Shown: in pieces, positions 1,311-7,612 of the stretch | Position numbering within the stretch: the stretch's first letter is position 1 | How the letters are laid out: each line of letters starts with the position of its first letter | IMG/VR virus record: IMGVR_UViG_3300011952_000012 | Strand: one strand, 5' to 3' | Origin: a virus | Taxonomy: Duplodnaviria; Heunggongvirae; Uroviricota; Caudoviricetes | Length of the DNA: 8,253 bases | Notes under the pieces: model-generated | Seen by the model: only the letters and a program-made list of their open reading frames with translations | Told to the model about the DNA's origin: nothing | Database searches by the model: none | Position numbers and translations under genes: made by a program

Positions 1311-3207
1311 GAGCGTCTCGAGATTGAGCTGGAAACGAATTTTACTGATACGCAGCGCTGCCAGCCCGTATACCCAGCAGTCGAGCGCCTCATTTCGCCG
1401 CCCCTGGTTGTCCCAGCGGTAAACGACGCGACCGTTAATGAGTTTCGGGATCAGAACTTCAGAGACGAGCTGTTTTGCCTCTGTTGTGCCGAATATTTCG
1501 TCGTCGTTTGGAAAATGAATTGCACCCGGTGTCGCTGATTTTGGGTCTGGTTCCAGTGGCAGGGGCATCGCGAGCAAATCTTTTGCTGTGTCAGTACCGA
1601 TTAACGACAAATAAACTTTATTCGCGTTACGTGTACGCGGCATATTTACGACTGGCTGGCCGTATGAGCTTGCGCCTTTAATTGGAATGACCCACAGCGG
1701 ACCGAGTTTCAGCGAGCGGTTATAAACAACCTGCGCATCTATACCGCCGGTATCCCACGCCCAGCGGCTGACGCCGATTGTGGTCCCGTCGCTGCGCCGG
1801 TATTGTTTGCGAATCACTCCGTCGACACGCTGCAGCGTGTCCTCTTCGTCGTAGCGACCGAGGACGATTGTTTTATCAATCAGCCAGCACTCTTCCTCAG
1901 CTCCCCAGCCCCACACGTAACACTCGTAGCGCCCGGACGTCTGAGAGTCGATGCCGCCGGTTATATAAACAACACCGTCAGGAACCTGGCTGGCGTATTT
2001 TTCCCGGCGATTAACCAGAATATCGTGCTCCAGCTGCTCGCTGGCCACGTCGCTCCAAAGCTCGCCGAGCGTCGTGTTATGAAACGTTTTTTCTTTGAGT
2101 GGGTCGCCCTTCGCTTTCAGCCACTCGCTGACAATCTCGCCCCATCCATCAAGGTTTAGTGAATACAGGGCGTTTATCACGATCGCCGCGTGTTTCGGCG
2201 CGCGAACGACGCCACTGTCATGATCAAAAAAATGGATTNNNNNNNNNNTCTCGGGTCCAGGTGCAGTCCTCGGCTATCCAGCGCCCCCCGAGCTCCATTT
2301 TTTCGAGATCGCGATAGTAAAAATGCTCCGGGCAGTGGCAGCACTGGTAATACGCGGACGACGATTTCGACTCGTTGGTCTGCAGGCTGTCATCCCACTT
2401 GAGACCGTATTCGATACCGTCGAAACCAAATACCAGGACCTGCTCCTCGCCACAATGCGGACACTTCAGGTAAAAACGAAACGTCAGATCAGCCGCGTCT
2501 TCCAACATTTCTATATGGCTTTTGCCAGTAACGGTCGGCGTCGAACCAAAAATCGCTTTCGGGTATGCTGCGCCCTTAATTCGAACGAGCGCCAGCTCAA
2601 TTGGCGAGCCTTCGCCTTTACCTTTTTTAGCGACCTCCAGCGGCCAGCCGTCGACCTCGTCACCTTCGACAACCTGTTTCGTCAGTCGACGAAAATTCCC
2701 CGGCGTACTCGCGCCGCGAAAATCAATAATTGCGCCGCTCATCTCTTTGCGCTGGAGATTGTTACGCTCGTTGCTTTTATCCCAGTCTGGGAAAATTTTC
2801 TGAATCACCGGCATTTCGGCGATAGCGGGGTCAACCTCGTCGGCGACAAATCCATCCGATTCGTCATCGATAGGCTGATAGACCACGGCACTACGTTTTT
2901 TGTGCTCAGCGAAATAGAGCAGCGCCGCGACGAGTATTTTTGTATAACCGAGACGAGCTGATTTGCGAACAGACACGATTTTTATCGCGTCGTTAGTCAT
3001 CATATTTAACATCACTACCTGGACCGGCTGAGTCGTCCAGTGGCCAGCAATATGGCTTGAGCCTTCGGGAAGATAAAAATGTTTATCAGCCCACTCAACC
3101 CCCGTCATCGGTATCGTCACGCGCAAGGGATTCAACCCTGTCGAGATCGCGTTCGATATCGCTGACATCGTAATCGCTGAAGTCGATTCGTATGTCTGCC
3201 AGTTCAT
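1311..3207 (-). CDS. Terminase large subunit, lambda gpA family (interrupted by a 10-N run at 2239-2248; C-terminus in the 155-N run)
   Basis: ORF-track pieces 2224..3207 and 1095..2180 are two halves of one protein. N-terminal half has VEWADKHFYLPEG, VSVRKSARLGYTKILVAALLYFAEHKKRS, KCPHCGEEQ; C-terminal half has KEKTFHNTTLGELW, YITGGIDSQ, CWLIDKTIVLGRYDEEDTL, WDTGGIDAQVVYNRS, VIPIKGASSYGQPV, YLSLIGTDTAKD, RRNEALDCWVYGLAALRIS, all colinear with lambda gpA as I recall it. Start may be 3207 (ORF track) or the internal ATG at 3168 (MSAISN..., closer to lambda MNISNS...). Confidence 0.92.
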
Positions 3208-3661
3208 TCAGGGCTATTGCCAGCTCCTCTCGTAATACACTGCTCGCCTCCTGCGGCATTTCCGGCCACACCTTTTTTAACCGTGGTGGCCACGATTCGA
3301 CACGGGTACGTAATTCAACTGCGACGCGAGATACAGCTACGCTGATTAATTCAATTGGCGCGTAGCGTTTAGCAAGAATGCGGCGTTTCACGCGAGCCAT
3401 CAGGATTCGCTCCTGCCGTTCCTCATTTTTCAACCACTGCTCGCGATTTTTTTCGGGAGAATTGTCCCCCGCTTCCGGTTCGTCATTACTAGTTGTGTCG
3501 CGTCTATTGCTCCGGAGATAACGAATATAAAAATGGCGCCATGCGTCAAGTTCCCAATCGCCACGTCCTTGGGGGACTGGGGCTCCCGGAAGTTTTGCAA
3601 GATCGCGCAGACGACGATCAGATAGCAGTAAATGTGCTGCGACCTCAGCCTGACTTGCCAT
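3095..3661 (-). CDS. Terminase small subunit (Nu1-like DNA-packaging protein)
   Basis: 188-aa ORF immediately upstream of and overlapping the terminase large subunit. RBS GAGGA about 6 nt before the ATG at 3661. N-terminus (LSDRRLRDLAKLPGAPVPQGRGDWELDAWRHFYIRY) loosely resembles the lambda Nu1 N-terminal region (ASIRTIQNWQEQGMPVLRGGGKGNEVLYDSAAVIKWY); acidic C-terminus. Called mainly on synteny. Confidence 0.65.
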   Translation of the reverse strand: MASQAEVAAHLLLSDRRLRDLAKLPGAPVPQGRGDWELDAWRHFYIRYLRSNRRDTTSNDEPEAGDNSPEKNREQWLKNEERQERILMARVKRRILAKRYAPIELISVAVSRVAVELRTRVESWPPRLKKVWPEMPQEASSVLREELAIALNELADIRIDFSDYDVSDIERDLDRVESLARDDTDDGG

Positions 3662-3724
3662 TAAAAATCCTCACCGGAACCGGAAATACCCAAAATGAAA
3701 AAATACTAAAAACGAGTGAGTTTT

Positions 3725-3775
3725 TGCGCGTCTACCGACCCTCGGTGTTTTGAATTTCGGAAAGGACCCGCGACC
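3725..3775. other. Putative cos region (cosQ-like and cosN-like elements)
   Basis: About 60-100 bp upstream of the Nu1-like start. Minus strand reads CGGGTCCTTTCCG (plus 3758-3770), matching the lambda right-end motif ACGGGTCCTTTCCGG as I recall it, followed about 11 nt later by the hyphenated palindrome ACCGA-GGG-TCGGT (plus 3734-3746), a candidate nicking site. Confidence 0.45.
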
Positions 3776-4032: not shown

Positions 4033-4262
4033 ATGAACAAAGAAAAAATCGAAGCCTTAATGAGCGTAATATTAAAAGAAGCTGACCCCAAAAAATTTCC
4101 TGAGAAATTATCAGAGGACGCCATCGTATCTTTTTATCGTGCGAACTCCTCTTACCTACATTGTTCAACTTTAAGAGAATGGTTAAGCGGCGAAGCAGAG
4201 CCTTCAGATGAGATACTTGAGGAGATTATGGTTCAGAACAACTGGCGCGCAACTAAATGGTC
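4033..4262 (+). CDS. Hypothetical protein, low-GC moron-like ORF (3' end lost in or near the 10-N run)
   Basis: Only plus-strand ORF with a plausible hydrophilic translation (MNKEKIEALMSVILKEADPKKFPEKLSEDAIVSFYRANSSYLHCSTLREWLSGEAEPSDEILEEIMVQNNWRATKW). Markedly AT-rich compared with flanking phage genes, preceded by an AT-rich region 3890-4030. No clear SD. The ORF-track continuation after the gap is antisense to the lipoprotein signal peptide and is probably not real. Confidence 0.35.
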
Positions 4263-4272
4263 NNNNNNNNNN
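4263..4272. other. Run of 10 N (placeholder gap) between convergent genes
   Basis: Directly visible. Confidence 0.98.
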
Positions 4273-4403
4273 GTAATCTTCGTACCCGGCGCGATCGTCA
4301 CGTGTTTAATGCTGCTGCCGTCAGCGCGAGTCGCTTCGGTGTATGTCGAATGTGTGCAGCCTGCCATCGTGAAGAACGCGACAGCTAAGAGAAGTTTTTT
4401 CAC
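4273..4403 (-). CDS. Putative lipoprotein (N-terminal part; possible spanin or Bor-like outer-membrane lipoprotein), 3' end in or beyond the N-run
   Basis: GTG at 4403-4401 lies 7 nt after the endolysin stop (TAG 4413-4411). Translation V/MKKLLLAVAFFTMAGCTHSTYTEATRADGSSIKHVTIAPGTKIT... has a canonical lipoprotein signal peptide (KK n-region, hydrophobic core, lipobox-like MAG-C). All three minus frames hit stops within about 25 codons below the gap, so the protein is short unless the gap hides more. Confidence 0.55.
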
Positions 4404-4410
4404 GTTTTAC

Positions 4411-4890
4411 CTACGCTTCTGAGATAGATTTCTCAGCATTCACCAATGGAAGTGATTGTGGAACATCCGTTTGACCTGCTGGCCAGCGATAGCCTGTTAC
4501 GCGGGAACGAGGAAAAGCTTTGATATTTACTTCATCTGCCTGGTTGCCCCCCAAAATCATTAAATCCCCGGCGGCATTTTTCCCGACAACAAAACCAACG
4601 TGGCCACCGCCAGACCGAGACAGAATAGCAATGCATCCATAGGCAGGTTCCTTCAGTTCATTACCCCAATCGAGATAAGAATTCGCAGACTCAAAACGCG
4701 TTGAGCGAATACCAACACGTTCCAGCATTGCTCCGGTGAAGGCGGCGCACCATGGTGTTTCGTCATCCTTAATACCGCCGCGTTTGATATCTTTCCAGTA
4801 CTGCACAATTTCTGCAGCATGTTGCTTCCCTTTCATTTCCCGGATGCCGAGATTTTTTCGTGCCTCAATTAGCCATTTAGGATCGGTCAT
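4411..4890 (-). CDS. Putative endolysin: Cys-His peptidase (CHAP / NlpC-P60-like, TIGR02594-like) peptidoglycan hydrolase
   Basis: 159-aa ORF with RBS GGAGA about 6 nt upstream. Candidate catalytic Cys in DETPWCAAFTG and His in GGGHVGFVVG. Sits directly after two small membrane proteins and before a lipoprotein. Start overlaps the upstream stop (TAATG). Confidence 0.6.
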   Translation of the reverse strand: MTDPKWLIEARKNLGIREMKGKQHAAEIVQYWKDIKRGGIKDDETPWCAAFTGAMLERVGIRSTRFESANSYLDWGNELKEPAYGCIAILSRSGGGHVGFVVGKNAAGDLMILGGNQADEVNIKAFPRSRVTGYRWPAGQTDVPQSLPLVNAEKSISEA

Positions 4891-5162
4891 TACCTGTCTC
4901 CTGTTATTTTTGAAATATTTCCTCGTGCCCGCCAGACAGCAATACAGATGGTGAGGTTGAGAAAGAACTCTGCGGGATCAACCTGCGTATATTTCCCGTA
5001 AAAAATTCGTAGGGCTATCCACGCAGCAGACAGAATCGCCAGGTAAGCAGTTAGTGAGATAAAAAAACGATAGCGGCCTGTTTTTTGAAAAAACATCAAC
5101 CGCAGTGCCAGCATCAGACAGATAATTGCATTGGCATTGATGAGGACAGAGTGCAGGGTCAT
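4890..5162 (-). CDS. Small integral membrane protein (holin or antiholin-like), second gene of the lysis cassette
   Basis: 90-aa ORF with about three hydrophobic segments (AIICLMLALRLMFF, FFISLTAYLAILSAAWIALRIF, FFLNLTICIAVW). RBS AAGGGGA about 8 nt upstream. Stop and start overlaps with both neighbours (TAATG) suggest translational coupling. Confidence 0.6.
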   Translation of the reverse strand: MTLHSVLINANAIICLMLALRLMFFQKTGRYRFFISLTAYLAILSAAWIALRIFYGKYTQVDPAEFFLNLTICIAVWRARGNISKITGDR

Positions 5163-5545
5163 TATTTCATCCCCTTATCTGATTTCCATAAACGAGCTTG
5201 TGACATGATCCGCAACAGTGATGTAACGCTGATTACTGATGCAACCAGTGCACCAATGGCGGGAGAGACTTTTACTGTTACGGGAGGGTTCAGGTGACTC
5301 AGCACCGCATTCAGAATACCGGTAATGATGGCTGATGCTGTCTCAGCGCAATACACACCGCCAACAAACGAAATGAGTGCGAAAATAACCTGCTTCCAGA
5401 ATCGATGCTGCCCGGATGACAACACATAGAGAGCTGCGCCTGCCAGCGCACAGATCATCACTGCAGGTGTTGCCTCAGGAAATAACGCAGCAAACGTCAC
5501 CCCCGCCGAGCCAGCAGCAACGCCAGCGGTTAGAGGTTCAGACAT
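5162..5545 (-). CDS. Putative holin (multi-TM membrane protein), first gene of the late/lysis operon
   Basis: ORF track gives 5162..5671, but the ATG at 5545 (MSEPLTAGVAAGSAGVTFAALF...) has an RBS AGGAAA 6 nt upstream and lies downstream of the terminator hairpin; the longer start would run through that hairpin. 127 aa with 3-4 hydrophobic segments and a charged C-terminus (RLWKSDKGMK). Confidence 0.6.
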   Translation of the reverse strand: MSEPLTAGVAAGSAGVTFAALFPEATPAVMICALAGAALYVLSSGQHRFWKQVIFALISFVGGVYCAETASAIITGILNAVLSHLNPPVTVKVSPAIGALVASVISVTSLLRIMSQARLWKSDKGMK

Positions 5546-5561
5546 GATTTTTCCTGATTCA

Positions 5562-5590
5562 GAAACGACAAAACCCCGCCGTGGCGAGGT
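5562..5590 (-). terminator. Rho-independent terminator-like hairpin between the Q-like gene and the holin (tR'-like)
   Basis: Minus strand reads CCUCGC-CACG-GCGGGG (6-bp GC-rich stem, one G-U pair, 4-nt loop) followed by UUUUGUCGUUUCU. In lambda the Q-dependent terminator tR' lies in the equivalent position. Confidence 0.4.
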
Positions 5591-5625
5591 TCTTAGAAAT
5601 TTGGCAACATACCAAATTAGCGTTA

Positions 5626-5654
5626 AATATGGCCTATTTTGTTCGGTTTTGCAA
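5626..5654 (-). promoter_or_regulatory. Candidate late promoter (pR'-like) immediately after the Q-like stop
   Basis: Minus strand TTGCAA (5654-5649), 17-bp spacer, CATATT (5631-5626). Weak match to the sigma70 consensus; proposed from position only. Confidence 0.25.
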
Positions 5655-5657
5655 GCA

Positions 5658-6092
5658 TTATACGCAAACATCGTCTAAATGGTTCTGATAATGATGCAAA
5701 GTTGCAAAAAGTGCCACTTCATCAAGTGCTCTCACCGCCTCTTTCATTCCTACCCAGTGCGGGGAGTATGTTTCGCACCAGGTGGAACGAGAAACAGACA
5801 ACATTCCAGCTAGCGCAGATCCGGCCATCTCCTTAAAATCCTCGCGTTTATTTGCTGCTGCGACCGCCTGCACGGACAACCACACCAACGAAAGCAGGCG
5901 CTTGACTACTTTTCTCTGAGTTGACGCAGAGATGTTTCCTTTATAGCGACTCCAGACAGCCTCACAAATAGCTGTTTGGTGTTTGAACGCCAGGTTACCA
6001 CCGTAGCAATAGCGCAACCACGCCTGCTGGCTAACGTCGAGCGCGTTCACGGCACGGCGCCACGATGAATCAGCGAATTCAAAATCATTCAT
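5658..6092 (-). CDS. Putative late-gene antiterminator (Q-like), 144 aa from the ATG at 6092; may continue upstream across the N-run
   Basis: Open frame with a credible translation (MNDFEFADSSWRRAVNALDVSQQAWLRYCYGGNLAFKHQTAICEAVWSRYKGN...). It is the last gene before the promoter/terminator region and the holin, which is the Q position in lambdoid phages. I do not recognise the sequence as a specific Q family, so the function is inferred from synteny. Confidence 0.45.
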   Translation of the reverse strand: MNDFEFADSSWRRAVNALDVSQQAWLRYCYGGNLAFKHQTAICEAVWSRYKGNISASTQRKVVKRLLSLVWLSVQAVAAANKREDFKEMAGSALAGMLSVSRSTWCETYSPHWVGMKEAVRALDEVALFATLHHYQNHLDDVCV

Positions 6093-6126
6093 CGGCGGCG
6101 CGGGGCGACGTCTGCTGAAACTTTCC

Positions 6127-6136
6127 NNNNNNNNNN
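6127..6136. other. Run of 10 N (placeholder gap) inside the Q-like region
   Basis: Directly visible. Confidence 0.98.
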
Positions 6137-6333
6137 TAAACTGGCGGAACCAGAGCATCAACGGTCCGGTCCTCCAGTTGCACACGATGAATATGTTTGC
6201 GTGGGTATGCGTTTTTATCTGCTGGCGGGTGCTCACACAATGCTTCCAGTTGCCCCTTAGAACCACCAGACAAATCCCGTAATGCAGCACGCAGTTTTAT
6301 GCGGGTATATTCCAATAAATACTCGTTACTCAT
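6137..6333 (-). CDS. Small ORF upstream of the Q-like gene (65 aa visible before the N-run); either a separate small gene or the N-terminal part of the Q-like protein
   Basis: ATG at 6333-6331 overlaps the stop of the YbcO-like gene (TGATG). Translation MSNEYLLEYTRIKLRAALRDLSGGSKGQLEALCEHPPADKNAYPRKHIHRVQLEDRTVDALVPPV then enters the gap. After the gap this frame stops at 6087-6085, 8 nt inside the ATG-initiated downstream frame, but gap length is unknown so frame continuity cannot be judged. Confidence 0.4.
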
Positions 6334-7283: not shown

Positions 7284-7463
7284 TTACGCGTCAGGGGGTG
7301 TAATAGTATATCCAGCTGTTTCTGCCAACTCGAGAAACGCCAGCAGGCTGGCAATCCGCTCGTCGTCGCTGAGGACGCGTACAATCACTACGCGCCCCTC
7401 TTCTCGTTTGATTACAGCCCGGCACGTATCCGGTAATTTGCTGATCGCCTCGTGTGTGTTCAT
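7284..7463 (-). CDS. Small hypothetical protein (59 aa) under a LexA-box promoter; candidate SOS-induced regulator such as an antirepressor
   Basis: ATG at 7463 preceded by SD AGGGGGA about 5 nt upstream (the ORF-track start at 7484 lacks an SD). Translation MNTHEAISKLPDTCRAVIKREEGRVVIVRVLSDDERIASLLAFLELAETAGYTITPPDA. The promoter and LexA box lie 20-55 bp upstream. Confidence 0.55.
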   Translation of the reverse strand: MNTHEAISKLPDTCRAVIKREEGRVVIVRVLSDDERIASLLAFLELAETAGYTITPPDA

Positions 7464-7481
7464 ATTTCCCCCTGACAGAAA

Positions 7482-7501
7482 CACTGTATATATATACAGT
7501 A
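7482..7501. promoter_or_regulatory. LexA operator (SOS box), near-perfect consensus
   Basis: CACTGTATATATATACAGTA matches the E. coli LexA consensus TACTGTATATATATACAGTA at 19 of 20 positions (CTGT-N8-ACAG with an alternating AT spacer). Lies in the intergenic region just upstream of the 59-aa gene. Confidence 0.8.
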
Positions 7502-7519
7502 TTTTTTATCGTATGTCAT
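7491..7519 (-). promoter_or_regulatory. Sigma70-like promoter for the 59-aa gene, -10 embedded in the LexA box
   Basis: Minus strand ATGACA (7519-7514), 17-bp spacer, TATATA (7496-7491). The -10 lies inside the SOS box, the usual arrangement for LexA-repressed promoters. Predicted start about 20 nt upstream of the ATG. Confidence 0.45.
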
Positions 7520-7612
7520 AACATCAAATGCAATGGGGGAATAATGAGCAATTATATTCACCGCGTGAATTTGATTAAACGGTTTATTCCCGGAAAAAAC
7601 GGTTTATGGTTA

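Follow-up and report, generated by a model that had tools for sequence, protein, structure and literature searches.

A predicted phage 82-type late gene control cassette between the Q and holin genes of a lambdoid Escherichia coli prophage

Three unrelated families of phage Q antiterminator proteins have been distinguished, one of which is the Q82 family (PMC9388147; PMC9371919). In Pfam the Q82 family is represented by PF06323, whereas the Q protein of phage lambda belongs to an unrelated protein family, PF03589 (PMC9388147). In lambda a constitutive sigma70 promoter lies just past the Q gene, the Q-binding element (QBE) is located between its -35 and -10 hexamers, Q is loaded at a pause caused by a -10-like, sigma-dependent pause element within the initially transcribed region, and a terminator precedes the lysis genes (PMC4914094, PMC9388147). 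The lambda pause is at +16/17, and termination at tR' occurs at +193 (PMC4914094). A QBE position between -35 and -10 has been described for the Q proteins of lambdoid phages including 82 (PMC4914094). The late promoter pR' of phage 82 has been dissected in detail: transcription begins with AAA ('WT initial AAA sequence'), pausing is induced by a TATAAT-like element with an extended -10 motif and requires the GCC at +15-17, behind which comes an AT-rich stretch, and the polymerase pauses at +25/26, with U as the preferred terminal nucleotide (PMC5001585).

The stretch of DNA studied here (the window) is 8,253 nucleotides long and comes from a Caudoviricetes record of the IMG/VR collection (IMGVR_UViG_3300011952_000012). 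The genes and elements described below are on its minus strand. A Q antiterminator gene of the Q82 family, recognized by matches to PF06323, occupies positions 5658..6333, and the first late gene, coding for a putative holin, positions 5162..5545. The holin was identified by Pfam, in agreement with the RefSeq annotation of an E. coli chromosome (L001) that is 99.2% identical to the window. The Q open reading frame of the window is broken by a run of Ns (6120-6129); in L001 it is intact (3068-3739) and codes for 223 amino acids. After the holin gene come a second holin-like gene (4890-5162) and a gene for a CHAP/TIGR02594 endolysin (4411-4890); the Pfam matches of the lysis genes were Phage_holin_8 (E = 2e-11), Phage_holin_3_7 (E = 9e-19) and CHAP (E = 1.5e-5).

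With the Q stop codon TAA at 5660-5658 and the holin start codon ATG at 5545-5543, the intergenic region is 112 nt long (5546-5657). Read 5' to 3' on the minus strand, its promoter half is TAA-tgc-TTGCAA-aaccgaacaaaataggc-CATATT-taacgc-TAATTTGG-TATGTT-GCC-AAATTTCT, and it continues with aag-AACCTCGC-cacg-GCGGGGTT-TTGTCGTTTC-tgaatc-AGGA-aaaatc-ATG, in which AGGA (5552..5555) is the Shine-Dalgarno sequence of the holin gene, as read from the sequence, 6 nt before the ATG at 5545. On the evidence set out below we consider it about 90% probable that this region is a late gene control cassette of the phage 82 type, belonging to a lambdoid E. coli prophage. The cassette was found in approximately 500 of 5,426 complete E. 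coli genomes, ST131 strains among them, and carries no annotation in RefSeq genomes. The value of recognizing it is chiefly for annotation, as it would mark the exact switch point to the lysis and virion genes in a common prophage.

The assignment to the 82 type starts from the Q protein. PF06323 was the only Q-family Pfam entry matched by the Q protein of the window, with E = 9e-28 (above the curated cut-off) for the C-terminal and E = 1e-5 for the N-terminal part. In tblastn searches of phage genomes the protein was approximately 34% identical to the Q proteins of phages 82 and 434, with 93% of the length covered, and its relatives formed a graded series from 96% down to approximately 24% identity. 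The PF06323 match together with this graded similarity to the 82 and 434 proteins indicates that the right comparator is phage 82 and not lambda. The original prediction had described the region as pR'/tR'-like with lambda as the model. The likeness in kind was supported, both by the Q82-family Q and by the homology to the 82 type seen through phage 434, but phage 82 must take the place of lambda as the model. The predicted logic of the locus is nevertheless that of lambda, from the constitutive promoter just past Q to the terminator before the lysis genes. What differs is the register: the pause is predicted at +25/26 here as opposed to +16/17 in lambda, and termination at approximately +50 as opposed to +193. 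The cis elements of the window have no sequence similarity to those of lambda beyond generic promoter features. A lambda-type arrangement proper, with a PF03589 Q, a pause element at +1..+6 and tR' at +193, was rejected because the Q protein matched PF06323 only, the element is at +6..+14 and the predicted leader is only 50-55 nt long.

For the sequence downstream of the Q stop codon phage 434 was used as a proxy for phage 82; the Q proteins of the two phages are 89% identical and the 3' end of the gene, ATTGCAAAACTGGATTAA, is common to both. The proxy has a limit at +15-17, where 434 has GTA and the published 82 sequence GCC; the window has GCC. Downstream of Q, 434 has TTGCAA-17 nt-TATACT-TCATGC-AAATTTGGTATGTTG-TAAAAAATGTATAAACCCGCTGCCGAGTGGGTTTTTTTT, with which the window can be aligned without gaps from -35 to +15. 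The features common to the window and 82/434 are the PF06323 Q protein, the -35 hexamer TTGCAA, the 17-bp length of the spacer, the distance between the -10 hexamer and the start, the sequence ATTTGGTATGTTG and the T at +25; the window and 434 have in addition a terminator hairpin from approximately +31 and a T-tract from +47 in common. The differences are in the -10 hexamer (CATATT in the window, TATACT in 434), in the start (TAA in the window, AAA in 82 pR'), in the sequence of the spacer, in the 5' hairpin of the leader, which is present in the window but absent in 434, and in the first late gene, which begins 74 nt after +1 in the window whereas in 434 a different gene begins after approximately 180 nt.

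The -35 element of the predicted late promoter (the equivalent of pR') is TTGCAA at 5649..5654, the same hexamer as in phages 82 and 434, and the -10 element is CATATT at 5626..5631, which falls opposite the TATACT of 434 in the gapless alignment. A TTGCAA-17-CATATT motif between Q and the holin gene had been predicted, and it is present at 5654-5626 of the minus strand exactly as described. It occurs once in the window and was found in none of 200 shuffled sequences. The motif agrees with the sigma70 consensus at 8 of 12 positions, one fewer than the 9/12 required by a generic promoter scanner, which for this reason did not call it. Because of the 8/12 match the motif alone would be weak evidence of a promoter; support comes from homology to the TTGCAA-17-TATACT of 434 and from conservation. 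The transcription start is predicted at 5618..5619, 7-8 nt past the -10 hexamer. Alignment to 82 places +1 at 5619, where it coincides with the first A of the initial AAA of 82 pR' and with AAATTTGG in phage 434, but the purine at 5618 is equally plausible, and the numbering used here is uncertain by 1.

Conservation was studied in loci selected by the Q protein. When a single Q protein was used as query, a search of genome contigs yielded one close relative only. With an alignment of four Q sequences as query, 80 viral loci with Q proteins of 48-100% identity were gathered from IMG/VR by Q-protein homology alone, and the survey set consisted of these loci, nine phage relatives from GenBank and the window. 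The regions downstream of Q were anchored with the pattern TTG[ACT]AA-N17-NANANT, which fixes five positions of the -35 and three of the -10 hexamer, so that invariance at these eight positions (including A-11, A-9 and T-7) is by construction. The same gapless cassette, with the homologue of TTGCAA-17-CATATT, was present in 74 of 81 downstream regions examined, and 68 of the cassettes were unique. Among the regions lacking an anchor match one has TTGCGA at -35, one has a disturbed Q frame, the region still being Q coding sequence, and one is unrelated; Gifsy-1, PY54 and N15, whose Q genes are in a different context, also gave no match.

Many of the 68 unique cassettes are closely related and the conservation percentages given here and below overstate the independent evidence; with this reservation, the free fourth position of the -35 hexamer (-32) was C in 97% of them, positions -10 and -8 were conserved at 97%, and -12 was C in 88%. 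Further conserved positions were G-2, TTTG at +4..+7, TA at +9/+10 (100%) and AAA at +18-20. The distance from the Q stop codon to the first extended -10-like match is 19, 43, 70 or 106 nt, depending on the locus, and in the 19-nt group (e.g. phage 434 and Aeromonas phage pAEv1818) the -35 hexamer lies inside the Q open reading frame. The downstream gene varies as well: it codes for a holin in the window, and its place is taken elsewhere by small hypothetical genes or methylases, by tRNAs or by the gene of a membrane protein. The variable distance from the Q stop and the differing downstream genes indicate that the cassette is a non-coding module linked to Q. A module travelling with Q is what would be expected of a Q protein and its cognate loading site. 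The presence of every cis element in the window, the register in which the elements stand, their conservation across the family and the family of the Q protein can be read directly from these sequences.

Between the promoter and the hairpin lies an element that the original prediction overlooked, TGgTATGTT-GCC at 5614-5603. Its first part, TGgTATGTT (5606..5614), is like an extended -10 and is the predicted sigma70-dependent pause element; the GCC at 5603..5605 would be the discriminator-like, GC-rich part of the pause signal; and the pause site itself is predicted at +25/+26 (5594..5595), with a T at +25, in the register of 82 pR'. Together TGgTATGTT-GCC-AAATTTCT spans +6..+25, with TG at +6/+7, TATGTT at +9..+14, GCC at +15..+17, AAATTTC at +18..+24 and T at +25; the anatomy published for 82 pR' has the same register. 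Over the 13 nt of ATTTGGTATGTTG the window and phage 434 do not differ. In the 68 unique cassettes G+7, T+9 and A+10 were invariant and T+13/T+14 were conserved at 96-99%; for the three positions of the GCC (+15/+16/+17) the values were 96%, 84% and 97%, and for T+25 and A+26 they were 96% and 91%. By this comparison with 82, TGgTATGTT-GCC is the predicted pause element and the diagnostic part of the Q-loading site. When the literature was searched for TGGTATGTT itself, the matches were all irrelevant, e.g. EF-Tu genes.

It could be argued that TGgTATGTT is the late promoter's own -10 element and needs no -35. It fits a stand-alone extended -10 (TGnTATGTT) better than CATATT fits TATAAT, and the upstream TTGCAA-17-CATATT was left uncalled by the generic scan. 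Transcription would then start at approximately 5599 and give a terminated RNA of approximately 30 nt, and the upstream motif would be fortuitous or a second promoter. We consider this very improbable. In phage 82 the element that stands in the same register (+9..+14) was shown to cause sigma70-dependent pausing, and a mapped AAA start lies upstream of it (PMC5001585); the position of a -35 hexamer 17 nt upstream of TATGTT is occupied in the window by GGCCAT, which is not -35-like. Moreover, the free positions of the upstream hexamers (-32, -12, -10 and -8) are 88-97% conserved and lie at a fixed distance from TGgTATGTT, which would be unexplained if the hexamers were fortuitous. The assignment of TGgTATGTT to the pause, downstream of a promoter at TTGCAA-17-CATATT, is thus preferred.

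The predicted intrinsic terminator (the equivalent of tR') occupies 5562..5593 and has the core stem CCUCGC/GCGGGG (5589-5574) with the loop CACG, an A-tract upstream of the core stem, and the U-rich tail UUUUGUCGUUUC at 5573-5562. The hairpin as a whole (5593-5570) has 10 pairs including an A/U extension, five of them GC pairs, and is followed by TTTTGTCGTTTC. A GC-rich hairpin with a T-tract before the holin ribosome-binding site had been predicted, and was located at 5593-5562, beginning 33 nt past the -10 hexamer and followed by the AGGA and the ATG at 5545. The fold-energy calculation proposed along with it also turned out in favour of the hairpin: the folding energy was -14.6 kcal/mol (z = -3.6), and one of 200 shuffled sequences was as stable. 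In a scan of the whole 8.2-kb window the hairpin was the first-listed terminator-like site and the one with the longest stem. Since the U-tract is interrupted (UUUUGUCGUUUC), the efficiency of termination is uncertain from the sequence; the same interrupted variant recurs in several Q clusters.

The terminator is also conserved in the family. When 44 distinct leaders were aligned, the terminator helix was paired in 84.7% of its cells and GC/CG swaps were found at two stem positions; the covariation score of the helix exceeded that of all 500 shuffled alignments and of all slid controls. RNAalifold recovered only the four core pairs of the terminator. Distant relatives have entirely different stems at the same place, GCCCAC/GTGGGC in phiES15 and GCCCGAGG/CCTTGGGC in Klebsiella ST11phi8.2. 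The first TTTT is at +47 in 57 of the 68 unique cassettes, at +48 in six and at +49 in one, and the distance from the pause to the U-tract, approximately 22 nt, is nearly fixed. This spacing, the GCC at +15-17 and the U at +25 agree with biochemistry that comes from a single phage; the 68 unique cassettes, mostly from protein-selected loci, give a view at the sequence level of the constraint acting on late promoters of the Q82 type.

A hairpin just past the Q stop codon is also in a plausible place for the end of an operon, and TTGCAA-17-CATATT is a weak match to the consensus. The hairpin might then be a mere terminator of the early operon that contains Q, with the promoter motif upstream of it arising by chance and with no late promoter or Q-loading site in the region. 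We give this explanation hardly any credence, for it is the whole cassette that is conserved and not the hairpin alone. Nor does the cassette keep to the end of the Q gene: the pause motif follows the Q stop by anything from 19 to 106 nt, and in some phages the cassette begins inside the Q open reading frame. Sigma-dependent pausing is the only process in which the conserved GCC at +15-17 and T+25 have a known function (PMC5001585), and in phage 82 the homologous region has been defined as a promoter by experiment. The hairpin could serve both at the end of an operon and in a late gene switch, since polymerases that come from upstream unmodified would be stopped by it as well.

The reading as a late gene switch of the 82 type assigns a function to the spacer as well. 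The 17-bp spacer AACCGAACAAAATAGGC (5632..5648) is the candidate QBE, by analogy to 82 and because the QBE has been placed between -35 and -10 (PMC4914094). A search for a Q-binding element near the -35 had been suggested; by this analogy the element would rather lie in the spacer between the two hexamers, 5648-5632. With no more than 34% identity between the Q protein of the window and that of 82, and a spacer unlike the one of the 82/434 type (AACTGGATTAAAAGCCA), Q binding at the spacer would be an analogy, and the specificity of the Q protein is probably different from that of the 82 and 434 proteins. In the 68 unique cassettes AA at -29/-28 and AACAAAAT at -24..-17 were conserved at 87-100%.

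When the Q proteins were clustered and the spacers listed for each cluster, the upstream half of the spacer fell into discrete types, which were uniform within Q clusters and tracked the Q clades. The type AACCGAAC was found in the clade of the window, in several clusters with Q proteins of 48-58% identity and in Hafnia phage yong2 (34%). The type AATGCAAC was found in the largest cluster (approximately 53% identity), in the Flotzy/phiNP/LLS cluster and in a cluster of Aeromonas phages, AACCTGAC in one cluster, and AACTGGAT or AAGTAGAT in the 82/434/PPompW type. In the other half of the spacer, downstream, most non-82 cassettes have AAAAT(A/G)(A/G)G(C/G) and those of the 82 type T(A/G)AAAG(C/G)CA. 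Spacer types that track Q clusters are suggestive of a QBE co-evolving with Q, but would be seen just as well if the two were linked by descent. The discrete types could define specificity classes of the Q82 family, and the half-sites of the QBE could become readable from such comparative data. A sequence search of the PDB detected no solved structure of a Q82-family protein, and the survey yields candidate QBE types for the sole Q family that is still without a structure.

The functions of the cis elements are taken from the published experiments on phage 82; for the prophage of the window we infer from the sequence where transcription starts and pauses, that it terminates, that Q binds and that the switch depends on Q. 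Host RNA polymerase carrying sigma70 would initiate constitutively at TTGCAA-17-CATATT. Sigma70 would then bind again, at TGgTATGTT (+6..+14), and the polymerase would pause at approximately +25/26, helped by the GCC at +15-17 and the U at +25. Without Q the polymerase would escape and, after another 25 nt or so, stop at the intrinsic terminator, releasing a leader of approximately 50-55 nt. When Q is present, it would bind its element in the -35/-10 spacer and be loaded onto the paused complex, and the polymerase, now resistant to termination, would go on to transcribe the genes for the holin, the endolysin, the terminase and the structural proteins. The cassette is plainly related to a textbook system, whose mechanism is here extended to a new relative; this will not surprise specialists.

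The leader counted from +1 (5619 or 5618) to the U-tract has a predicted length of approximately 50-55 nt. The original prediction had given approximately 50 nt and had stressed that such an RNA would be very short. The length is in agreement with ours, but the shortness is no peculiarity of the window: with the T-tract at +47..+49 in 64 of the 68 unique cassettes, a terminated leader of this predicted size is the norm for cassettes of the Q82 type. For the predicted leader of the window a fold with two hairpins was obtained (-21.4 kcal/mol, z = -4.2). The pause element lies within the 5' hairpin, AAUUUGGUA/UGCCAAAUU at +2..+22, which is strong in the clade of the window (z = -4.5) and is kept by compensatory changes in some lineages (AATTCTGA/TCAGAATT in locus L071, C6-G18 in locus L031). 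As a family-wide RNA element the 5' hairpin was rejected, because it was stable in only approximately 15 of 39 unique leaders and is absent from the majority of the family and from 434; most members have an A·C mismatch in the middle of the hairpin and form no stable 5' fold. We regard the 5' hairpin, on this distribution, as a clade-specific extra outside the core mechanism.

A precedent exists for a further role of such an RNA. StxS, a by-product of the pR'-tR' arrangement of Shiga-toxin phages, became an Hfq-binding small RNA (PMC7547250), and the predicted leader resembles it in being a short RNA that Q-type antitermination control would yield constitutively in lysogens as a side product. 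The leader might in the same way act in trans, in addition to and not instead of the late gene switch. In the clade of the window it has the usual shape of a small RNA, a 5' stem-loop and a terminator with a U-tail, and the cassette occurs in approximately 500 E. coli genomes. However, StxS is a processed RNA of 74 nt with demonstrated targets (PMC7547250), whereas the predicted RNA of 50-55 nt is almost fully paired in this clade, with approximately 4 nt between the hairpins and almost no single-stranded seed. Most family members, 434 included, lack the 5' hairpin, the pause and terminator signals in the DNA fully explain the conservation of the leader, and a search of Rfam 15 gave no match in 5546-5657 even at E <= 1. 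We consider a trans-acting function unlikely. The broader proposal, that the leader is a constitutive StxS-like small RNA of the lysogen with a function of its own, or else that the 5' hairpin, forming after the polymerase has left the pause, modulates escape from the pause, the efficiency of termination or the stability of the late mRNA, is likewise unlikely. Elsewhere in the window, the Rfam search returned a sub-threshold match to RsaE at 7475-7561, which is explained by a LexA-box palindrome, and a chance match to Ocean-VII.

The distance of the terminator from the predicted transcription start was strongly conserved. Among the 68 unique cassettes of the comparative set (family-wide, loci L003-L097) the T-tract of the terminator began at +47 to +49 in 64 cases, and the pause-to-terminator distance is therefore almost invariant at about 22 nt. 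Longer leaders were found in PPompW, in Klebsiella ST11phi8.2 and at locus L054. The near-constancy of the roughly 22-nt interval may reflect a constraint, or it may reflect merely shared descent.

On the minus strand of the window, 5598-5618 (leader positions +2 to +22) form an inverted repeat, AATTTGGTA/TGCCAAATT, that encloses the pause element. As judged from the sequence, the leader RNA would fold into a 5' hairpin at this repeat. The hairpin was strong in the clade of the window (z = -4.5), and a few lineages (L071, L031 and L036) have retained it through compensatory changes. When leaders of Q82-type cassettes were compared, it was missing in most family members and in phage 434, the proxy for phage 82. 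Further downstream (5550-5566, minus strand) the U-tail of the terminator can pair, through its distal portion, with the holin Shine-Dalgarno sequence AGGA in a weak hairpin, UUUCUG/CAGGAA. At locus L056 the stem of this hairpin is retained and the loop differs. The pairing might serve to link translation with readthrough; alternatively, it may be a chance match.

The spacer between the -35 and -10 hexamers, the candidate Q-binding element, was a hybrid (AACCGAAC-TGAAAGGCA) in Klebsiella phage ST11-VIM1phi8.2 (L016), where the site reaches from about 17 nt upstream of the Q stop to 12 nt downstream of it. Its upstream half is of the window's type, whereas its downstream half is of the 82 type. 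This arrangement hints that the presumed element consists of two separable half-sites.

The Q protein of Gifsy-1 (L012) belongs to the same Pfam family as that of the window (PF06323, 33% identity), but its cassette is different. In the 130 nt following the Gifsy-1 Q stop no TGnTATGTT element was found, indicating that the 82-type pause element does not occur throughout PF06323. The promoter-like sequence TTGACA-18-TATATT straddles the stop codon, and a terminator follows the predicted start at a distance of about 75 nt. In the window, a perfect TATAAT hexamer (gTATAAt; 5659-5664, minus strand) overlaps the Q stop codon, and only 4 nt separate it from the late promoter's -35, which lies downstream. 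No recognisable -35 was present at a spacing of 16-18 nt from this hexamer, which is probably a chance match.

The lysis cassette (4411-5545, minus strand) starts with two tandem holin-like genes, Phage_holin_8 followed by a 3TM Phage_holin_3_7, whose stop and start codons overlap. The endolysin that follows is of the CHAP/TIGR02594 type, not a lysozyme or transglycosylase. Several ORFs of the window are broken by N-runs, which stand for masked or unresolved bases and are seen as X-runs in the translated ORFs at about 1124-1393, 2224-2344 and 4233-4422. The Q ORF, with an N-run at 6120-6129, is among them and shows up in two pieces in different frames; the gene is intact in the E. coli chromosomal locus L001 and in L002.

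A near-consensus LexA (SOS) box, the palindrome CACTGTATATATATACAGTA, is located at 7482-7501, upstream of an ATG at 7463 on the minus strand. It agrees with TACTGTATATATATACAGTA at 19 of 20 positions, a match reached by none of 200 shuffles. The ORF of about 60 amino acids (MNTHEAISKLPD...) starting at this ATG begins about 18 nt downstream of the box, which suggests from sequence that the small gene would be under LexA control. It may encode an antirepressor, as in Gifsy-type prophages. The sub-threshold match to RsaE arises from the palindrome of the LexA box.
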